A program made the position numbers and the translations under genes. 64,000 nt of DNA from a virus (Duplodnaviria > Heunggongvirae > Uroviricota > Caudoviricetes). This document shows positions 3,699 to 19,670 of this stretch, piece by piece. Position 1 is the first letter of the stretch. Every line of letters begins with the position of its first letter. The notes below the pieces were generated by a model. The model did not search any database. It was not told where the DNA came from and saw only the letters and a list, made by a program, of their open reading frames with translations. The DNA lies in the IMG/VR virus record IMGVR_UViG_3300050581_000228. One strand, given 5' to 3'.

Positions 3699-4209
3699 CG
3701 AGCATCTCCTGAATCGCGCGCCGTAGGTAATCCACGGCTGTGTGGTCTTTGAGCGAATTCCACGGTCGCGGGCATAACAAGGTGGCTCCACCGGCCTGAC
3801 GGAAGGCCAGAATGTTGCTTTCGCGGTCGTCGATCAGCAACGTGCGCCCGTTGGCACACCACGCCTTGTTGGGCGTCAGGACGAATCGCCGCGTGTAGTT
3901 CGGCATTTGCTGTTCGATCCATCGCAGTTTGCCCTCGGCTGAACCGGGCCAAGAGGCAGGCGTGGAACAGATCACCACGTTCTCCGGCCCCACGGCATCT
4001 TCACAGAGGGCCACTATCCCGCGACCGTCCTCCATCCACGGAAGAGTTGCCCACCAGATCGCATCCGTCTTGCCCCAGAGTTCCGCATCGGTAATCTGGA
4101 GTTCGCCGCGATGAAACGCCGTGTTCACATCCATGCCATGTAGGTCATGGACGGGAGATTGGAGATCGACGATCACGCCGTCCATGTCCAGGAAGATGAG
4201 CTTGTTCAT
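3691..4209 (-). CDS. HAD superfamily 5'(3')-deoxyribonucleotidase-like phosphatase
   Basis: MNKLIFLDMDGVIVD (DxDxV) and LLIDD motifs. NT5C-like enzymes are common in phages. Paralog of the 10511..11080 gene. Confidence 0.65.
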   Translation of the reverse strand: MNKLIFLDMDGVIVDLQSPVHDLHGMDVNTAFHRGELQITDAELWGKTDAIWWATLPWMEDGRGIVALCEDAVGPENVVICSTPASWPGSAEGKLRWIEQQMPNYTRRFVLTPNKAWCANGRTLLIDDRESNILAFRQAGGATLLCPRPWNSLKDHTAVDYLRRAIQEMLDA

Positions 4210-4514
4210 GCTGGCTGTCCGTCCCTCCCGTTGACGCAAGGCGTATTGGCATTGCGCAGCGGCACCCCATGCTGCTCGAAACAGGCGACTCCGAGCGTCA
4301 CGACTTTTCGCAGACTCTCCAAGGTCTTCTCGTCGCCGTCCTCGCAGGTTGCCATGCGGAACGCCTGGTCAAGGTAGTGCCCCATGTAGACCAGGAATTC
4401 GCCGACAGTGCGCTTGTGCTCCTGGAAAGTGCCGTTCCATTGGCGTTGCCCCCAGCGGCGGGCTTGGTAGGCACGCTCGCTGGCAATCGCGTCGAAAATC
4501 ATGTCGATGGTCAT
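4206..4514 (-). CDS. hypothetical protein, possibly an all-alpha MazG-like NTP pyrophosphohydrolase
   Basis: 102 aa. ERAYQARRW...VGEFLVYMGHYL...EDGDEKTLESL loosely resembles the MazG EExxE/D pattern. ATGA coupling to the ligase gene stop. Confidence 0.35.
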   Translation of the reverse strand: MTIDMIFDAIASERAYQARRWGQRQWNGTFQEHKRTVGEFLVYMGHYLDQAFRMATCEDGDEKTLESLRKVVTLGVACFEQHGVPLRNANTPCVNGRDGQPA

Positions 4515-5584
4515 TCGTTGTCCTGTGCGCCTTTCCGATCGAGATAGTCCGCGCTCACGCTTTTCAAGATCAGCCGACCGCCGGTAGGAGCGTAGAATTG
4601 CTCAACCTGCGGGGTGATGACGCAGCCTTCTCGATCCTTAAAGCTGCTCTTGATCTTGTCTGAAGTAGCCAGCGTCGTGGGACCGTAGGTGAACTGCCTC
4701 ACGAGGTCTTTGCTGAACGGTCCCTCGTAGAGCACGGGGACCAGTTCGACGCCGAACTGGGCGCAGGCGGCTTTCAACGCCTCCCAGTCGAGATACCTGC
4801 CGTTGACGCTGATGTCGAAAACCCGGTAGCCGTCCTTGTCCTTGACTCCATAGTCGAGGTCTTGAACACACGCCCCGAAGATTTCCCCGAAAACGATCAC
4901 CGAGTTCTTCTCATCGCAGAGATGCGTGAGGAGATTCAAGACGCATTCGTCTTCGAGCGGCTTCCAGTAGATGCACGCCTTGCCTTCTTCCGGTTTCTTC
5001 CGCCTGGTCCGATGGCTCCCGGCCATGAACTCGAATTCGCCGTTCTTGAGGATCAGACCAACCCGGCTGTTCGTGCCGTGAATCTTCTCCGTGATCCGAA
5101 CGATTGTTCCTTCCGCGAAGGCATCGGGATAGCGCCAGATGTTCTCGATTTCTGTGTACTTGTGGAACTGGCTGTCCTCTGGCGCGAGATCGCCGGCAAA
5201 ATACTTGGCCGGCGGCTCGTACTTCTTGGCGGCCCACATCACCGACACGTCGCTCCCCAGGGGATGGGCGCGCAAGAGGTCGGGGGCAGGGATGATGAAA
5301 CCGAAGCTCGGTTCGCCTCGCAGCCGGCAGGCTGCCACCCGACACTGGCACTTGATGCCGTCGAGTTCGGCGTGTTTGAGATACTTCTGGATGCCGAGCG
5401 TTTGGCTGACATCCTGTGGGATCAGAATTCCGGGATGGAAAAAGACAACCCGCTGACCGTGTTGGAACTCGCCCTTGCCGACGATCGTTGTAAGACCCTT
5501 GATGACCGCGATTTCCAGTTTGCTCGCGTTCGGATGGGGCCTGATCTCGTCAATGGCGGTGAGTTCAACGAAAATGTTGGACAT
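4511..5584 (-). CDS. RNA ligase (Rnl2-like nucleotidyltransferase, KIHGTN motif I) with N-terminal tRNA-binding-like OB domain (DraRnl/NgrRnl Rnl5-like architecture)
   Basis: Motif I TEKIHGTN sits at about aa 168. The N-terminal 130 aa (HPNASKLEIAVIKG...GQRVVFF...ACRLRGEPSFGFI) matches the Myf/EMAPII-type tRNA-binding domain pattern. Confidence 0.7.
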   Translation of the reverse strand: MSNIFVELTAIDEIRPHPNASKLEIAVIKGLTTIVGKGEFQHGQRVVFFHPGILIPQDVSQTLGIQKYLKHAELDGIKCQCRVAACRLRGEPSFGFIIPAPDLLRAHPLGSDVSVMWAAKKYEPPAKYFAGDLAPEDSQFHKYTEIENIWRYPDAFAEGTIVRITEKIHGTNSRVGLILKNGEFEFMAGSHRTRRKKPEEGKACIYWKPLEDECVLNLLTHLCDEKNSVIVFGEIFGACVQDLDYGVKDKDGYRVFDISVNGRYLDWEALKAACAQFGVELVPVLYEGPFSKDLVRQFTYGPTTLATSDKIKSSFKDREGCVITPQVEQFYAPTGGRLILKSVSADYLDRKGAQDNE

Positions 5585-7107: not shown

Positions 7108-7820
7108 CGGTCTTCCATTGGTCGCTCGTGGTCAATCGTCTCCGCAAGCACTTGCTCGACTCGTTGGACGGCCTCAGCAAAATACTTGGCGTCCTTCTCG
7201 ATTCCCACGAAGCGCTTGCCGCTTCGGATCGCGGCTTCGGCCGTGGCACCCGATCCCATGAACCAGTCGCCGATCGTCTCGCCCGGCATCAAAGTCACCA
7301 GTCGTTGCAGGAGTTCGATCGGCTTCTCGGCCGGATGGATGCGATTGCTCGTCGGAACAACCTTGCACGATAGAACAGTCCCTTGGGTGTCCGTGAGCGT
7401 CGCGCCGGTGCCGGAGCACGCCAGGATCAATTCGTGCTGATGCCGCCACGGCCGCCCCATTCCGATCCGCTCCTTGTTCCAGACCAGGCAGACGGATCGC
7501 GGGAACAGGCTGTAGGTAGCTTCGTAGAACACCGGGTAGCTCTGGGCATCACAGAAGAACAGATGGTGTGAGTCCTTGCCGGCAACTTTCTGTGACAGGC
7601 CCACAATCTGCTCAAACCAGCCCCGCAGAATGCTCAGGTCCGCGTAGCAACGGGTCCAGCAATCCTCAGCCCGGCTGGCGTAATGCTGGGCCGGCAGGAA
7701 GAACGGCGGGTCGGTAATGACCGCATCGACCATGCCGGCTGGCAGCCGTCTCAAGACGTGCTCGGCATCACCGCAGAACAGCGAAATGTCGTTCTGCTGC
7801 CAATCAGGCTTCAGGGTCAT
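7092..7820 (-). CDS. DNA methyltransferase (beta-class N4-C/N6-A, ParB-associated type)
   Basis: DPPF near the N-terminus, then HPAEKP and GSGATAEAA (FxGxG-like), the order seen in DNA_methylase N-4/N-6 family. Probable start MTLKPDWQQ. Confidence 0.8.
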   Translation of the reverse strand: MTLKPDWQQNDISLFCGDAEHVLRRLPAGMVDAVITDPPFFLPAQHYASRAEDCWTRCYADLSILRGWFEQIVGLSQKVAGKDSHHLFFCDAQSYPVFYEATYSLFPRSVCLVWNKERIGMGRPWRHQHELILACSGTGATLTDTQGTVLSCKVVPTSNRIHPAEKPIELLQRLVTLMPGETIGDWFMGSGATAEAAIRSGKRFVGIEKDAKYFAEAVQRVEQVLAETIDHERPMEDRCRVL

Positions 7821-8908
7821 TCCACGTCCCTCCGTCGCCAATAGCGGGCTTCCTTCGGGATTCCGTCATCGGTGAGTTCCCGGTACTTGAACGTGACCGT
7901 CTGGCCTGTCTTGAAGCACTTCCCCTGGAAGAATGCTGGCATATCCTCGCCCGGATGCTCGGCCGCCGTGCGGCTCATGTCGGGATTGAGAAACTCGCGC
8001 TCGGCGTCCGTCAGGCCGGCAAGCTCCAGTCGCTTGCCCCTGTAGTCCACGATCAGTGCGCCAATCTTGCCCAGAAGTCGGCTGCCCTTGTTCGTCTCAC
8101 GACCAGACGTGAAACCAACGACCGTAGCCTCAGCGTCCTCGTAGGGTTTGAATTTGAGTAAGCCCTTGTGCCGTTTCGGCGTCCAGGGGGCCATCGGATC
8201 GCGGATCACACAGCCCTCCCCGCCTTGGTCGAGAACCTTTTGGAGGAAATCATTGACATTCGCTTGTGCCTCATCCTCACCCTCCGGCAACCGAAGCTGC
8301 TGATGAATGAAGACCCGATCATTCTGGGTCTCCAAGAACTCGCGCAGGAACATCAACTCATCGTTGAAGGTCGCCGGTGTGTTGACCCAGCCATAACCCG
8401 GCATCCTGTCGATCCGGGGCTTGAACCATTGTTCGATCTGCTCGAAGGCCAGGCTGCGGACCATGTTGGCGTTCTTGATCTCCCCCGACATGAACACGTA
8501 GGGAAGCGCAGGAGCGCTGTAGACCGCATAGCTGATGCGATGGAATCGCGGGTCCGGCTCATCGCCGCCGCAGATCGAGCGGCAAAGCTGGAAATTGCCA
8601 CGACCGGCCCACAATTCCCCATCGAGCGGACACGCCGGAAGGGCATTCAGAAAATCATCCGGGGCCATGATCGGATTACCATACCGGGACCACAGACCCG
8701 TGGCTTTCGGCTTGAGTTTCAACTTTCTCTTGCCGGTTTTCGGGTCTGTCACGCTGGCCCACGGTACTTGTTCGGTAGGGACGCCACGACTCGCGCCGCC
8801 GTCCCAGAAGCAGCGCGTTCCGTCGAGCTTCTCGCTGACCAAGTAGCCGGCGATCTTGTGCTTGTCCGGGTTGTAGGTATCGGCCAGTTGGAGAAACTCA
8901 CGACGCAT
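7817..8908 (-). CDS. ATP-dependent DNA ligase
   Basis: Probable start MRREFLQ. Motif I SEKLDGTR, motif III LDGELW, motif IV EGCVIRD, motif V LLKFK. Confidence 0.85.
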   Translation of the reverse strand: MRREFLQLADTYNPDKHKIAGYLVSEKLDGTRCFWDGGASRGVPTEQVPWASVTDPKTGKRKLKLKPKATGLWSRYGNPIMAPDDFLNALPACPLDGELWAGRGNFQLCRSICGGDEPDPRFHRISYAVYSAPALPYVFMSGEIKNANMVRSLAFEQIEQWFKPRIDRMPGYGWVNTPATFNDELMFLREFLETQNDRVFIHQQLRLPEGEDEAQANVNDFLQKVLDQGGEGCVIRDPMAPWTPKRHKGLLKFKPYEDAEATVVGFTSGRETNKGSRLLGKIGALIVDYRGKRLELAGLTDAEREFLNPDMSRTAAEHPGEDMPAFFQGKCFKTGQTVTFKYRELTDDGIPKEARYWRRRDVE

Positions 8909-9182
8909 TATGTCGCTCCAGGTGCTTGAATGCGGACTCGCTGTAATCGGCAAGGAAACTGCCGGCGCACCCGCAGGCAAACATGACGAACGGATTGAGG
9001 CTGACCAACGGACTGAGCAGGACGCCGCACCAGAAGCCCGCGCACTGGTAGCACTCAAACAAGCCGTGGTAGAGCTTCGGCGGCAGGTGTTGGCGCGCCC
9101 ATGTATCCACCGGCTCCATGATCTCGCTGTCGATCAGGATGTGAGTCATGCCGATGACGGCCAGAAAGAACAGCCAGATCAT
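8898..9182 (-). CDS. small cysteine-rich membrane protein, hypothetical
   Basis: 94 aa. Hydrophobic N-terminus MIWLFFLAVIG, then CYQCAGFWCGVLLSPLV. Confidence 0.4.
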   Translation of the reverse strand: MIWLFFLAVIGMTHILIDSEIMEPVDTWARQHLPPKLYHGLFECYQCAGFWCGVLLSPLVSLNPFVMFACGCAGSFLADYSESAFKHLERHNAS

Positions 9183-9964
9183 ATTGGCAACTCCGTTGGA
9201 TTGTGGACCGCCGTGCCGTTCACCCAGTCGAACACGCGGAACTGCCCACCTTCCGTGATTCGCACGAAGCTATTGACCCGCTCGGCCCAGGTGCCACAGT
9301 TGTAGTGCCACTCGCCGATCCGACCTGGCTTGTGGGTATGTCCGCAGACCGTCACGTCGGCGATCGGCGGCATCTCTCGCAGGTTGCGGTTGATGGCCGT
9401 GAACCGATCGGGCTTGCCGCGCAGGCGGTTCCAGAAGCTCACGAGCTTCTCAAGACGCCCGACCGTCCGGTCTTCGACCGTGCGGTACTTGTCGAGCATC
9501 GGCCCATCGTTGCGATCCTCGGCAAGCCCTGAGTAGATCGCCGTGATCCGTCCGAGTCCGGGCGTATCGCTGGAGCAGAACGGATCGGCTTGGTGACCGT
9601 GGATGAATCGCACTGACTTGCCAGCGATCCTCTCCTCGTGTTCAGCGCACATCGTCGAGAAGAACGGATATTCCAGCCAACCTTCCTTGTGCATGAAGTA
9701 ATAAAGGTCGGCATCGTGATTCCCAAGGACGTAGATTGCCTCCATGTCCGCTAGGCGGTCCAGCAGCCGTTCACGATTCGTCAGAACCTTGCTGATGTTG
9801 CTCTGCCACAACTCGAACAGATCGCCGCAGATAATCAACCGGCCGTTGTTACCGTCAACCATTTTGAGGAAGCGCTTGAACTGCTTCTCGCGGTCGCCAT
9901 GCGCGAAGTTATCGCGCGGCCCGCCATCTCCCATGTGCAAATCGCTTATGCAGTAGGTTTGCAT
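9179..9964 (-). CDS. calcineurin-like metallophosphoesterase
   Basis: DLHMGDG, GDLFE, GNHD, GHTH motifs. Confidence 0.8.
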   Translation of the reverse strand: MQTYCISDLHMGDGGPRDNFAHGDREKQFKRFLKMVDGNNGRLIICGDLFELWQSNISKVLTNRERLLDRLADMEAIYVLGNHDADLYYFMHKEGWLEYPFFSTMCAEHEERIAGKSVRFIHGHQADPFCSSDTPGLGRITAIYSGLAEDRNDGPMLDKYRTVEDRTVGRLEKLVSFWNRLRGKPDRFTAINRNLREMPPIADVTVCGHTHKPGRIGEWHYNCGTWAERVNSFVRITEGGQFRVFDWVNGTAVHNPTELPI

Positions 9965-10100: not shown

Positions 10101-10172
10101 AAGCCAGCGGCAGGAATCGAACCTGCGCCCCGCTGATTACAAGTCAGCGGCTCTACCATTGAGCTACACTGG
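10101..10172 (-). tRNA. tRNA-Thr (anticodon TGT)
   Basis: Reverse complement folds as GCCAGTG-TA-GCTC/AATGGTA/GAGC-C-GCTGA/CTTGTAA/TCAGC-GGGGC-GCAGG/TTCGATT/CCTGC-CGCTGGC-T, a canonical cloverleaf of 72 nt. Confidence 0.8.
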
Positions 10173-10337
10173 CTCCAGCCCGATCAGACCTGCGCGTCGG
10201 CGCTGGTCGTCTCGGCCTGGTCGCACGTGGCCGCCTCGGCGGCTTCGGTGCTCTGCTGGGCCTCGGGAAGAGCCTGCTCTTCCGGCTGCGGGCCACTCTG
10301 GGTTTCGTCGTGCGTCATTGCGAGCACTCCTGTGGGG

Positions 10338-16690: not shown

Positions 16691-18352
16691 CTAGTTGCGA
16701 ATGAAGTCCGCCATGAGGGCGGGACAGGAGGCGTCGAAGCCTACCAGGTCAAGCATCCCAGCGTCGTTCGGATCAGCGATCGTAAACCCGGTGGCCGTCA
16801 TGCCGACAACGATCAGCTTGGCGTTGATGCCCGTGGCCTGACGGTACTGCATGAGGGCCTGACTGGGATGAATCTGCCCGGCCCAGGTCTCGTTGTCCGT
16901 GTAGACCACGAAGGCGTCCACTTCGAGCCGGTGTTCGAGGGCATAGATCATTGGCAGGGCACAGTCGGTCCCGCCCATCGGAATCTGCTCGATTGCCTGG
17001 ATCACGCCGTTGAGGCCCTGCCTCTTGGAGATGTCCACGGGCACCAGTTCGTGTGAGAAGCCGACCACATGCGTCTGCGGCTCGATCTTGTGAGTCACCA
17101 TCGACATGCAGGCGACGGCCTTGCGGCAGTCCAGATGCGTATTGGCCAGGTACTCCCAGCCCATCGACCCTGACACGTCCAGGGCCAACAGATGCCGCTT
17201 GCCGGTCGGCTCGACGGCATCGAAAGCCGAGTAGAAGGCATCCTCCAATGCAGCCGTGACTTGCTGTACCGGCTGCCATGTGAGGCTGCCTTTGATCCCG
17301 TGCCCTTGCCCGTAAGTGTCGGCTGCAATCAGAACGGACAATGGATGCACACGAGCACCTTTGAGCCGTTCGGTGTTGGTGAGCGTGTCGCACACCAGCT
17401 TCGTCGCTAGCGATAATGGCTTGAGCAGGCCCACGCTGGTCATCTTGCCGAGGTTGCGAATCATGGCCGTGGGCGGCAGATTCGGCAGCAAGGCGTCCCA
17501 GACCGCTGGGCTGCCAAGCAGCGTATTCGGCACGTGTTCCAAGGTCAGGCCGAAGGCTTGGATCAGCCGGACGGCCTCCTTCTCGTCACTGGGACCGAGC
17601 TTGTTGATCTCATTGAAGCCGGTGACGATCCGCAGATCACATGAACACGGCGGAAGCTCGCCCTTGGTAATCCAGTGATACAGGGCGTTGTGGTCGGAAT
17701 CAGTCGCCACCGGATGGCTCAGTCGCAGCACGTCGCGGTGCGTATAGCCAGCCCGGTTGCGGTACTTCGTGACTTGATAGGCCAGCTTGTCAGCAGGTTT
17801 CGTGTTGTACCAGACCGCAACCGCTTCACGTAGACCACGGCCCCAGCCGCGCAGTTCTTTGCAGTTGGCGACGAATTGGAACAAGTGCGTTGAAGTTCGG
17901 CACACGTGCGGGACAAAGCCAAGAGCCATGCGCCGAGCCGAATCGTTGTCCATCTGACTGGCCAAGAGTGCCAAAGCGAAGATCGCGGCGTCATTCTTGG
18001 GAGCACGTCCCGACTCGCTGATGGAAACAATCGTATCGACGGTCTGCGTTGGGTTGGCAGCCGCACACTCGATCACCACGGCGGCATTGTCAGCCGTCAA
18101 CTGGCGCTCGCCCACGTAGTAGGTGCCGCCCTCGCTGCCCAAGATCAAGAACCGCTCTAGTCTGCTCCAGCAATCCAGCGTATGGTTGTAGCCACCAGCA
18201 TTGTTCTGCGCCTGGCGTTTGCCAGGGATCGGCAGGCTCTGCGGGGTGACTCGGGACGACACGTGCTTGGCTAGGGTCTTCATCCAACGATCTCCAAGTG
18301 AAAGAATTGGGCGAGGAACTGCCGTGGGTGTCATCATTGCCAGATAACCCAC
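16691..18352 (-). CDS. rsr: Ro60/Rsr-like protein (TROVE-like helical N-terminal region plus C-terminal vWA domain with MIDAS)
   Basis: 553 aa, GTG start. C-terminal vWA HLLALDVSGSMG...GGTDCALPM (DxSxS...T MIDAS) preceded by about 350 aa of helical repeats. Size and architecture match Ro60 orthologs. Y-RNA-like motifs lie on both sides. Confidence 0.7.
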   Translation of the reverse strand: MGYLAMMTPTAVPRPILSLGDRWMKTLAKHVSSRVTPQSLPIPGKRQAQNNAGGYNHTLDCWSRLERFLILGSEGGTYYVGERQLTADNAAVVIECAAANPTQTVDTIVSISESGRAPKNDAAIFALALLASQMDNDSARRMALGFVPHVCRTSTHLFQFVANCKELRGWGRGLREAVAVWYNTKPADKLAYQVTKYRNRAGYTHRDVLRLSHPVATDSDHNALYHWITKGELPPCSCDLRIVTGFNEINKLGPSDEKEAVRLIQAFGLTLEHVPNTLLGSPAVWDALLPNLPPTAMIRNLGKMTSVGLLKPLSLATKLVCDTLTNTERLKGARVHPLSVLIAADTYGQGHGIKGSLTWQPVQQVTAALEDAFYSAFDAVEPTGKRHLLALDVSGSMGWEYLANTHLDCRKAVACMSMVTHKIEPQTHVVGFSHELVPVDISKRQGLNGVIQAIEQIPMGGTDCALPMIYALEHRLEVDAFVVYTDNETWAGQIHPSQALMQYRQATGINAKLIVVGMTATGFTIADPNDAGMLDLVGFDASCPALMADFIRN

Positions 18353-18442
18353 GCGCTTCGGCCCAATGTTTTGCCGGGCAAGGAATGCCGATCGGTGTTT
18401 GTCAACTGAAGGTGAGATAACCGATGCAGCTTCGGCCCGGAG

Positions 18443-18572
18443 GCACGCCGGTAGGACTCGAACCTACGACCACAGGTTCCCTTTGTGATAACGCTCCCGA
18501 TTCGGCCCATCAGGCAAGAGACTCGAAAGCGATTTCTGATACCTGCGCTCTGACCAACTGAGCTACGGCGTA
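18443..18572 (-). ncRNA. tRNA-like gene 1 with about 56-63 nt intervening module inside the anticodon stem-loop (Y-RNA-like/intron-like)
   Basis: Acceptor TACGCCG/CGGCGTG. D-arm GCTC-AGTTGGTCA-GAGC. Anticodon stem CAGGT...ACCTG enclosing 63 nt. Variable loop TGGTC. T-arm GTAGG-TTCGAGT-CCTAC. The insert contains CGCUUUC...UCUCUUGCC...UGGGCCGAAUCGGGAGCGUUAUC. Confidence 0.5.
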
Positions 18573-18581
18573 CACGAGAGC

Positions 18582-18701
18582 GGACACCGGCGGGGATCGA
18601 ACCCGCAACACCCCGTTATCAGCGGATAACGCTTTGCCTTCGGCCCAGAGGGCAAGAGATGGAAAGCGCGTTAGGTGCTTTGCCGATTAAGCTACGGCGT
18701 C
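18582..18701 (-). ncRNA. tRNA-like gene 2 with 49 nt homologous module between the D-arm and an anticodon-arm-like hairpin (loop CUGAUAA, would read GAU)
   Basis: Acceptor GACGCCG/CGGTGTC (one G-U pair). D-arm GCTT-AATCGGCA-AAGC. T-arm GCGGG-TTCGATC-CCCGC. Insert CGCUUUCC AUCUCUUGCC CUC UGGGCCGAAGG CAAAGCGUUAUC, with outer stem CGCUUU/AAAGCG covarying against CGCUUUC/GGGAGCG in gene 1. Confidence 0.5.
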
Positions 18702-18709
18702 CAAATCGT

Positions 18710-18743
18710 TCTCTATTTAAGACGACAGGCGGGGAGGGGTTTT
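18710..18743 (-). promoter_or_regulatory. conserved 34 bp promoter-like motif immediately upstream of tRNA-like gene 2 (identical copy upstream of the 61667 ORF)
   Basis: TCTCTATTTAAGACGACAGGCGGGGAGGGGTTTT here equals the reverse complement of 61609-61643, which lies 24 nt upstream of a plus-strand start codon. Confidence 0.4.
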
Positions 18744-19549
18744 GCCGTCAGATTTTGTCCCGTTTTTGCCAATTCAATGTCCTGATCGAACTCGTCATCG
18801 CTGATATAACCCGCACACCATGCGCCCATCCGCGTAGCGAGACCTTCAAGGCCGGCTTCCAGCAATTGCCCGATGCGGGCATTGATCTCCTCCTTGCCTC
18901 GCCGATACCGGAACTTCCTGCGATACCGAGGGTTGACGATGAGCTTCCGCTTGTGCTTGCCCCGAGCCGCAATGATTTCATCGGCCGCCTGAATTTGCTC
19001 ATCGGCGGGGAGCTTCACGAGGGCATCCACGTCGAGCAAAGTCAGCATCCGGGCGGCGACCTTCTCACGGAGTTCCTCGGGAAGCTCCATGATCCGTAGC
19101 CGCTGATGCACCCACCGCGTATCGCGGTTCATTTCCTGGGCGATCGTCCGCAACGATGTGCCGGCGGGAAAACGACGAGCAATCGCTTGTGCCTGTTCGA
19201 GCGGATTGAGGTCTTCGCGCTCCAAGTTCTCGGTCAGGTTTAGAATCTCTGCCGCACGGTCAGTAAGACCTTGCCGGATGTTCGCCGGGATATTGGTCCA
19301 TCTCAGAAACGTCTTGACCGCCGCCAGACGGCGGAAACCGGCGACCAGGCGGTATGGCTCAATGAAGCCGACCTGACTGTCCTCGCGCCGCTGGAGGATC
19401 ACCGGGATTTCAAGCCCGGCTTGCGCGATGTTGTCGGCCAGCCCCTTCACGGACTGAAACGTGAACACATTGCGGCAATTGAAATCAGGATCGACCCAGA
19501 TGTCGGCCAGCGGAACGTCGTATGCGTCGTAACGACTAAGGCGTTCCAT
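18713..19549 (-). CDS. ParB-like nuclease domain protein
   Basis: Start MERLSRYDAYD. ParB box PYRLVAGFRRLAA (GxRRxxA). Confidence 0.65.
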   Translation of the reverse strand: MERLSRYDAYDVPLADIWVDPDFNCRNVFTFQSVKGLADNIAQAGLEIPVILQRREDSQVGFIEPYRLVAGFRRLAAVKTFLRWTNIPANIRQGLTDRAAEILNLTENLEREDLNPLEQAQAIARRFPAGTSLRTIAQEMNRDTRWVHQRLRIMELPEELREKVAARMLTLLDVDALVKLPADEQIQAADEIIAARGKHKRKLIVNPRYRRKFRYRRGKEEINARIGQLLEAGLEGLATRMGAWCAGYISDDEFDQDIELAKTGQNLTAKPLPACRLK

Positions 19550-19565
19550 AGATACCTCGGTAGAC

Positions 19566-19592
19566 GAAAAACGGCCCGGCCGAAGCCGGGCC
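19566..19592 (-). terminator. rho-independent terminator downstream of tRNA-Asn
   Basis: Minus-strand GCCCGGCTTCGGCCGGGCC followed by GTTTTTCG. Confidence 0.55.
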
Positions 19593-19595
19593 AAA

Positions 19596-19670
19596 GGCTG
19601 CATCGCCTGGGGTCGAACCAGGAACCACAGCATTAACAGTGCCGCGCTCTACCATTTGAGCTACGATGCA
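19596..19670 (-). tRNA. tRNA-Asn (anticodon GTT)
   Basis: TGCATCG-TA-GCTC/AAATGGTA/GAGC-G-CGGCA/CTGTTAA/TGCTG-TGGTT-CCTGG/TTCGACC/CCAGG-CGATGCA-G-CC. Confidence 0.8.

Follow-up and report, generated by a model that had tools for sequence, protein, structure and literature searches.

Y RNAs are found near rsr and on its strand in 254 bacteria and 22 phages, and the motif GNCGAAN0-1G is common among them (Chen et al. 2014, PMC4201824). In every species characterised, one Y RNA is tRNA-like and one, YrlB or Yrn2, is a long hairpin. The M. smegmatis YrlA and YrlB are encoded upstream of rsr and are processed from a single precursor (PMC4201824). In the Thermus phage phiLo, two Y-RNA-like hairpins upstream of the Ro60 gene were found by way of the CGAA motif. 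These hairpins bind the phage Ro60, as observed by electrophoretic mobility shift assay (EMSA) and cryogenic electron microscopy (cryo-EM), and form complexes with the host PNPase (NAR 2025, PMC12135203). A locus of this kind is described here from the phage record IMGVR_UViG_3300050581_000228, of which a stretch of 64,000 nucleotides (the window) was analysed. Two modules, C and D, are located upstream of its rsr gene. They are probably two genes for hairpin-type Y RNAs of ~62-67 nt, the last two of a four-unit array that adjoins rsr on the same strand.

Modules C and D upstream of rsr

The rsr open reading frame (ORF) encodes a Ro60 ortholog with matches to the Pfam families TROVE (5.5e-44) and vWA_Ro60 (1.9e-67). 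Its product matched human RO60, Xenopus Ro60 and D. radiodurans Rsr in the PDB with E-values of 1e-117 to 1e-125. The gene and the elements next to it are the following.

16691..18283, minus strand: rsr, 530-aa Ro60 ortholog, presumed protein partner of all four modules
18292..18295, minus strand: GGAG Shine-Dalgarno sequence of rsr, read from the sequence, 8 nt before the ATG
18367..18306, minus strand: module D, probable hairpin-type Y RNA, AUUGGGC-C-GA-AGCG-CGUGGGU-UAUC...loop...ACCCACG-GCAGUUCC-UC-GCCCAAU
18440..18374, minus strand: module C, probable hairpin-type Y RNA, CCGGGC-C-GA-AGCUGC-AUCGGU-UAUC...23-nt loop...ACCGAU-CGGCAUUCC-UU-GCCCGG
18343-18364, 18416-18438, 18487-18508 and 18625-18646, minus strand: four copies of the motif GGGCCGA-N7-11-GTTATC

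Read 5' to 3' on the minus strand, the order is ParB-like ORF, tRNA-like unit 2, tRNA-like unit 1, C, D, GGAG and rsr. The array is made up of two tRNA-like/Y chimeras followed by two plain hairpins, directly upstream of rsr. Two nucleotides separate unit 1 from C, and the 6-nt linker CAAAAC separates C from D. Module D is followed by UCUUUCACUU, by GGAG (18295..18292) and by the rsr ATG at 18283. Counted from the last paired base of D, the distance to GGAG is 10 nt and that to the ATG 22 nt; C lies 90 nt upstream of the ATG.

The preliminary description of this locus had reported four motif copies in about 320 nt, all on the rsr strand. A pattern search returned exactly four matches in the window, spanning 18343-18646, all on the minus (rsr) strand and within 304 nt. 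In 100 dinucleotide-preserving shuffles of the window no match was obtained (0 expected by chance). The plus-strand strings quoted for the two leader copies are present in the sequence as given. These copies had been described as copies of the motif, but each forms the 5' strand of a complete stem-loop with its 3' strand downstream. The extent reported for the first copy, 18343-18368, covers only the 5' strand of D, and D reaches 37 nt beyond the reported start. Moreover, the CUUGCCC element placed upstream of the first copy (18382..18376) is actually the 3' strand of module C; the 3' strand of D itself is CCUCGCCCAAU (18316..18306).

The stem of both modules has a lower helix with the invariant GGGC/GCCC. 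Above it come a bulged C, pairs of the types G:U/C and A:U, an internal loop and an upper helix. The upper helix is variable and closes with GG:CC, after which UUAUC is left unpaired, in C and D as well as in their relatives. The loop of C is 23 nt long and that of D ~17 nt, with a 4-bp apical stem. Folding with RNAfold gave -27.1 kcal/mol for C (z -4.19, 0 of 200 shuffles equally stable) and -27.1 kcal/mol for D (z -2.86). Folded jointly, the two modules kept both hairpins, with -54.2 kcal/mol and z -3.75.

The ends of the modules are paired through a helix with a bulged C, as in the Ro-binding stem of Y RNAs (CCGGGC-C-GA/UU-GCCCGG in C and AUUGGGC-C-GA/UC-GCCCAAU in D). The motif GNCGAAN0-1G is present as GCCGAAG in C (18436..18430) and in D (18362..18356), and UUAUC represents the YUAY motif; because of these two elements the modules are read as hairpin-type Y RNAs. 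Both lie on the same strand as rsr and near it, as do the Y RNAs surveyed by Chen et al. (2014). Their hairpin folds, together with the two tRNA-like Y units directly upstream, agree with the YrlB/Yrn2 class of hairpin-type Y RNAs. A pyrimidine-rich loop is seen in part, since the 5' half of the C loop, UAUCUCACCUUC, is pyrimidine-rich and the D loop is not clearly so. The tRNA-like domain that YrlA carries between its stem strands was not found: the loops of C and D have no T-loop motif, and the Rfam YrlA model matched neither module.

When all Rfam families were searched, C gave no match and D gave only sub-threshold ones, to Y_RNA (20.6 bits against 38) and to sbRNA (18.4 bits against 38). 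The likeness to vertebrate Y RNA proposed earlier is visible in the Rfam Y_RNA alignment of 18301-18368, which places GGCuGGUCCgAagguaGUGGGUUAu opposite CAUUGGGCCGAAGCGCGUGGGUUAU and pairs D in the same register as the hairpin; the score of 20.6 bits (E 0.46), however, is below the threshold.

Conservation and distribution of the modules

The Y-RNA fold of C and D is conserved by covariation and is strictly associated and co-oriented with rsr. For comparison, 80 IMG/VR loci with relatives of Rsr (41-74% identity) were oriented with rsr on the plus strand. A regular expression (regex) for the 5' strand found multiple copies upstream of rsr in about 20 of the 80 loci, with a single match on the opposite strand. 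Most of these copies fold as C/D-type hairpins whose upper helices are visibly compensatory. The regex count was superseded by a covariance model (CM), R1, which found modules in 51 of the 80 loci.

R1 was seeded with 29 hairpins picked by the 5'-strand motif alone. Because the choice was made on the 5' strand only, complementarity of the 3' strand is independent evidence. RNAalifold on the 29 hairpins gave a two-helix stem, and 8 of its 14 pairs had double-sided changes. With G12:N87 and A13:U86 added to this alignment, 90.3% of the pairs were standard, compared with 37-50% when the partner was slid. Double-sided changes numbered 87, compared with 13-32 for the slid partner, and none of 500 shuffles matched the observed score. 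The G12:U87 pair was present in 25 of the 29 sequences.

The R1 search covered the window and the 80 loci (649 kb, both strands). It returned 146 matches at E<=1, every one of them on the rsr strand. Module C scored 63.2 bits (E 1.8e-14) and module D 61.3 bits (E 6.2e-14), and nothing else was found in the window. In the 146-module alignment, which was fitted to R1 and leans toward the structure, 92.4% of the cells were paired against 30-46% with the partner slid; there were 601 double-sided changes, and compensation was seen in 15 of 16 pairs. Conservation is highest at the bulged C (97%), the G that follows it (98%), G7 (94%), G9 (97%) and the closing GG of the upper helix (92-93%). The five positions of the unpaired UUAUC are conserved at 99, 99, 94, 83 and 95%. 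In locus L001, the ortholog of C (2635-2706) has a conserved loop and an upper helix compensated to AUUGGU/ACCAAU, and an ortholog of D is present at 2848-2912.

At E<1e-3, R1 detected at least one module in 51 of the 80 loci and at least two in 40, with a maximum of seven in L036. These modules were located upstream of rsr in 104 cases and downstream in 14. Short modules (<100 nt) numbered 102 and long ones 16. A T-loop motif was present in 14 of the 16 long modules, which identifies these as canonical YrlA, and in one of the 102 short modules. Linkers between modules were 19 nt or shorter in 32 of 67 cases, so tight tandem arrays are the rule.

The largest array, in L036 (2210-2913, plus strand), occupies ~700 nt upstream of rsr and comprises three long YrlA-type and four short modules at this threshold. 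In L013, a wcaG RNA motif (RF01761; 1298-1413, plus strand, the rsr strand) scored 56.2 bits, above its threshold. It is located directly downstream of two Y modules (1132-1201 and 1205-1296).

Genomes in GTDB were scanned with the exact pattern GGGCCGAAG-N6-9-GGTTATC. At least 120 matches were found; on the order of a thousand chance matches were estimated in the 596 Gb scanned, so many of the matches are noise. Among the 120 matches listed, 39 lie 100-1200 nt from rsr, and all 39 are co-oriented with it. The genomes among the listed matches include those of Nostoc and other cyanobacteria, Chloroflexota, Armatimonadota, Actinomycetota, Verrucomicrobiota and Gemmatimonadota. When R1 was applied to the 39 loci, 48 modules were identified, in arrays of up to five and with short and long forms mixed. 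The motif is thus present beside rsr homologues of phages and of bacteria, where the preliminary description had proposed to look for it, an outcome in favour of its finding. As for conservation of strand and spacing, which had also been raised there, the strand is tied to rsr (146/146 in phage loci and the window, 39/39 in bacteria), but the spacing between copies varies.

In Nostoc and Cylindrospermum (L103, L120, L126, L144, L146, L155, L180 and L192) the motif lies downstream of rsr on the same strand. Its offset from rsr in these cyanobacteria is fixed at 105-120 nt, mostly 108-109 nt downstream.

In the cultured Mycobacterium phage Nidhogg (L201, MK359350), two R1 modules (30.9 and 21.6 bits) are present on the minus strand upstream of gene 234, which is annotated 'Ro-like RNA binding protein'. 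A segment with a partial Rfam YrlA match (36 bits) is also located upstream of this gene on the same strand.

4167-4239, 4300-4377 and 4440-4515 of Nidhogg, minus strand: Y-type segments, two R1 modules and one YrlA-like segment, from R1 and Rfam

These segments overlap genes 233 and 232, annotated 'hypothetical protein', which are probably mis-annotated non-coding RNA (ncRNA) regions.

Among the readings offered for the leader copies in the preliminary description, extra Y-RNA-like units is the one supported: the bulged Y-type stem is complete, it covaries over 146 modules, it occurs in the rsr-strand orientation only, and it is found beside rsr in phages and bacteria.

tRNA-like units and described Y RNAs

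Two tRNA-like units immediately upstream of C complete the array.

18443..18572, minus strand: tRNA-like unit 1, Rfam tRNA match of 47.4 bits with a 60-nt insertion at the anticodon loop, containing motif copy 3 (18487-18508)
18582..18699, minus strand: tRNA-like unit 2, acceptor GACGCCG/CGGUGUC read from the sequence, containing motif copy 4 (18625-18646)

The junction of unit 1 has a D-arm on its upstream and a T-arm on its downstream side, and that of unit 2 is likewise flanked by D- and T-arms. Each unit holds a Y module. The module of unit 1 occupies the anticodon-loop position and is circularly permuted, with the 3' strand CGCUUUCGAGUCUCUUGCC, the loop UGAU and the 5' strand GGGCCGAAUCGGGAGCGUUAUC; that of unit 2, also permuted, reads GCGCUUUCCAUCUCUUGCCC-UCU-GGGCCGAAGGCAAAGCGUUAUC. 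Unit 2 was folded by RNAfold into a cloverleaf-like structure (-48.8 kcal/mol, z -2.2). Units of this type have the Y stem in place of the anticodon loop, in the order 3' strand CUUGCCC, loop, 5' strand GGGCCGAAG..GCGUUAUC, and closed by a loop of 3-4 nt. Units 1 and 2 are circular permutations of YrlA in which the RNA ends lie at the 7-bp acceptor stem. Further permuted units were found in L001 (~2375-2499 and ~2506-2630), L002 (2299-2422 and 2760-2857), L032 (2189-2312) and L046 (near 6589). The standalone examples in L002 indicate that the permuted unit is genuine. No description of a circularly permuted tRNA-like/Y arrangement was found in the literature searched.

The only Rfam YrlA match in the region (18523-18635, minus strand; 37.9 bits against a threshold of 69) extends from the 3' half of unit 2 into the 5' half of unit 1. 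A canonical YrlA was rejected as the primary reading of the two units: it would orphan two halves, and standalone permuted units exist in L002. Because the neighbouring acceptor strands CGGUGU and ACGCCG are complementary, it is possible that the tandem alternatively folds as one canonical YrlA between two half-units. Between the discriminator base of unit 1 and module C there are 2 nt, and modules adjoin tRNA-like units in the same way in L001, L002, L004 and L032. Overall, a T-loop motif precedes 13 of 118 modules, compared with a background of 2.4%.

Compared with described Y RNAs, C and D are closest in arrangement to YrlB (S. Typhimurium, M. smegmatis) and Yrn2 (D. radiodurans). Like these, they are the shorter Y RNAs beside a tRNA-like one and rsr on the same strand, form a hairpin from their 5' and 3' ends, and carry GNCGAAN0-1G as GCCGAAG. 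Unlike YrlB and Yrn2, which were compared by description only, C and D stand in tandem 6 nt apart and are shorter (62-67 nt), and unlike the M. smegmatis YrlB they have no T-arm. The resemblance to Yrl1 and Yrl2 of phiLo, likewise taken from their description, lies in two Y-RNA-like stem-bulge-stem RNAs directly upstream of a phage Ro60 gene. The phiLo Ro60, however, is only distantly related to the Rsr of the window (PDB 9KOP, E 4e-6, compared with 1e-117 to 1e-125 for the cellular proteins above), and the window locus has two extra tRNA-like chimeric units.

With YrlA (RF02553) the modules share the Rsr-binding stem, and R1, although built from hairpins, also finds long modules with a tRNA-like domain in the loop. 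The GNCGAA and YUAY (UUAUC) motifs are common to both, but C and D have no tRNA-like domain. With metazoan Y RNA (RF00019) they share a 5' strand near the vertebrate consensus GGNCCGA..GUGGGUUAUC, the bulged C and the G:U/A:U step. Nematode stem-bulge RNAs (RF01656), which are Y-RNA homologues, are comparable to C and D in size and shape. C and D differ from these two families in being phage-encoded and, as predicted, co-transcribed with rsr instead of being Pol III genes, in requiring no oligo-U/La tail, and in having G:C in place of U:A at the third base of the helix.

Two sister modules exceed the RF01656 gathering score of 38, one in L027 (4766-4838, 40.2 bits) and one in L077 (2837-2900, 38.5 bits), and three further modules reach 33-37 bits. 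Automated annotation would call the L027 and L077 modules nematode small RNAs. Across the 19 loci scanned at Rfam thresholds, no hairpin module was assigned to a bacterial family, and two fell into the nematode sbRNA family.

Expression, alternative explanations and significance

Transcription signals were sought between 16500 and 19800. No sigma-70-type promoter was detected in this region, and no terminator was detected between the tRNA-like units and rsr, including the stretch between D and the Shine-Dalgarno sequence. The sole terminator on the rsr strand follows a tRNA-Asn at 19593..19572 (two overlapping calls, one hairpin). A reading of C and D themselves as intrinsic terminators or attenuators was rejected: the alignment shows no consistent U-tract after the stems, and the scan gave no match there. 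The gene on the far side of the array is the following.

18713..19633, minus strand: ParB-like ORF with the Pfam domains ParB_N and HTH_ParB

The tRNA-Asn (19596-19670, minus strand) and the strong terminator-like hairpin that follows it both overlap the 5' end of the longest form of this ORF, so the true ParB start is probably farther downstream. The promoter of the unit formed by the Y array and rsr may lie between 19570 and the ParB start.

With neither a terminator nor a sigma-70-type promoter inside the array, the array and rsr are predicted to be transcribed as one unit. These absences, and the 2-nt gap between unit 1 and C, lead us to infer that C and D are released as small RNAs from a precursor shared with the tRNA-like units. 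In the proposed mechanism host RNase P and 3'-end processing enzymes would cleave the precursor at the tRNA-like units. An endonuclease would cut the single-stranded linkers, and the ends would be trimmed back to the protected stems. The phage Rsr ring would bind each hairpin through the GGGCCGA bulged helix, as Ro60 does Y RNA. The bound RNAs may stabilise Rsr, gate its central cavity and/or tether Rsr to a host partner such as PNPase; gating or tethering roles have been shown for D. radiodurans, Salmonella and phiLo (PMC4201824, PMC12135203). With differing loops in C and D and two tRNA-like domains, the array could yield ribonucleoproteins (RNPs) of differing specificity.

Several points weigh against this assignment. 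Both C and D fall under the Rfam gathering score of every family. Binding of the modules by Rsr is inferred only from resemblance and genomic association, and the transcription unit of the array is assumed, no promoter having been found in the region scanned. The regex-chosen seed makes the invariance of the 5' motif partly circular; covariation and strand bias are unaffected by this. In addition, the RNAfold optimum for a 206-nt context (18240-18445, minus strand) keeps C and exchanges hairpin D for long-range pairing with the rsr Shine-Dalgarno sequence, start and early coding region. On the basis of this predicted fold, D could adopt an alternative cis conformation; its z-score is only -1.7, without comparative support.

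There is a small chance that C and D are instead cis-acting Rsr-binding sites that remain unreleased in the rsr leader. Rsr bound to D (and C) would block the 30S subunit at the Shine-Dalgarno sequence, giving negative autoregulation, which is compatible with the Y-RNA assignment and not mutually exclusive with it. The short distances from D to GGAG and ATG, with no terminator between, fit such a role, as does the long-context pairing of D with the Shine-Dalgarno and start region. In the window and in L001, L003, L004, L005, L070, L073 and L077 the distance from the end of the last module to the start of the rsr match is 16-21 nt, and some of the loci with this leader layout share only 43-52% Rsr identity. 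The order of module, 4-10 pyrimidine-rich nt, GGAG and ATG recurs in L001, L003 and L004. Nevertheless, a position in the leader is not conserved: the distance between rsr and its nearest module is 30-1800 nt in most loci, 14 modules lie downstream, and in Nostoc the motif is ~108 nt past the stop. Canonical long modules of the YrlA type have this stem too, relatives that have been characterised occur as free small RNAs cut from a precursor (PMC4201824), and the alternative fold of D has the poor z-score and missing comparative support noted above. The literature searched yielded no precedent for a Ro60 protein that regulates itself through its mRNA.

Slightly fainter still is the prospect that D, possibly with the whole uncut array, acts in cis, its leader Y-RNA mimics loading Rsr beside the Shine-Dalgarno sequence and throttling translation. 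If this were true, several Rsr rings could be assembled on one polyvalent transcript. It would also be an autoregulatory use of the Y-RNA fold, of which none was found for any Ro60 ortholog in the same literature.

It is improbable that the hairpins lack an Rsr-specific function, whether as decayed duplicates of YrlA or tRNA-like Y units or as generic processing or stability hairpins. Duplication clearly drives the evolution of the array, as illustrated by two D-type copies in L001 that share GCUCGUGGGUUAUC, and one tRNA-like unit in L004 is reduced to AGCGUUAUC of its module. On the other hand, short modules outnumber long ones by 102 to 16. The bulged C (97%), GGGC/GCCC and UUAUC are kept, and compensatory pairing persists down to ~42% Rsr identity. 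Both readings are contradicted by this pairing; decaying remnants would not maintain it by compensatory change.

The DNA-level operator repeats suggested in the preliminary description, for a transcription factor such as the adjacent ParB-like protein, are effectively refuted: four similar direct repeats do lie in 304 bp between the ParB/HTH gene and rsr, but intramolecular pairing is conserved and not sequence, the upper helix varying freely with compensation; the frequent G:U pairs (G12:U87 above all) would be C:A mismatches on the other strand and make sense only in an RNA of the rsr strand; orientation strictly follows rsr while the spacing of copies does not hold; and across phyla the motif accompanies rsr and not ParB.

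The window is a tailed-phage genome, with the large terminase, the tape-measure protein and a family A DNA polymerase among its products; it also encodes a protein with a DNA-ligase OB domain and a metallophosphoesterase. No close relative of the window was found in the INPHARED phage collection. Matches there were confined to the rsr coding region, at ~70% identity, and came from Mycobacterium, Gordonia and Streptomyces phages. About 8 kb from rsr, the minus strand carries the DNA-ligase OB-domain protein (7817-9058), a calcineurin-like phosphoesterase (9179-9964) and a tRNA-Thr (10101-10174). Together with Rsr and the Y RNAs, these could form an RNA-repair or anti-defence gene set.

Read as hairpin-type Y RNAs, C and D fit a published class that includes YrlB and Yrn2 as well as Yrl1 and Yrl2 of phiLo. 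The concept is unchanged: Y RNAs beside rsr, including hairpin pairs upstream of a phage Ro60 gene, have already been published. What changes is that an unannotated 140-nt 'leader' would become two defined ncRNA genes, and that the phage would carry a four-unit Y-RNA set adjoining its Ro60 ortholog. Three by-products may merit separate attention: the hairpin-Y CM, the finding that tandem arrays are common, and the chimeras of tRNA-like unit and circularly permuted Y module. More than 100 hairpin Y-RNA modules are recovered by R1 from rsr loci of phages and bacteria, frequently as close-set tandem arrays of 2-7, and the model is of use for genome annotation and for the choice of RNAs for Rsr biochemistry.

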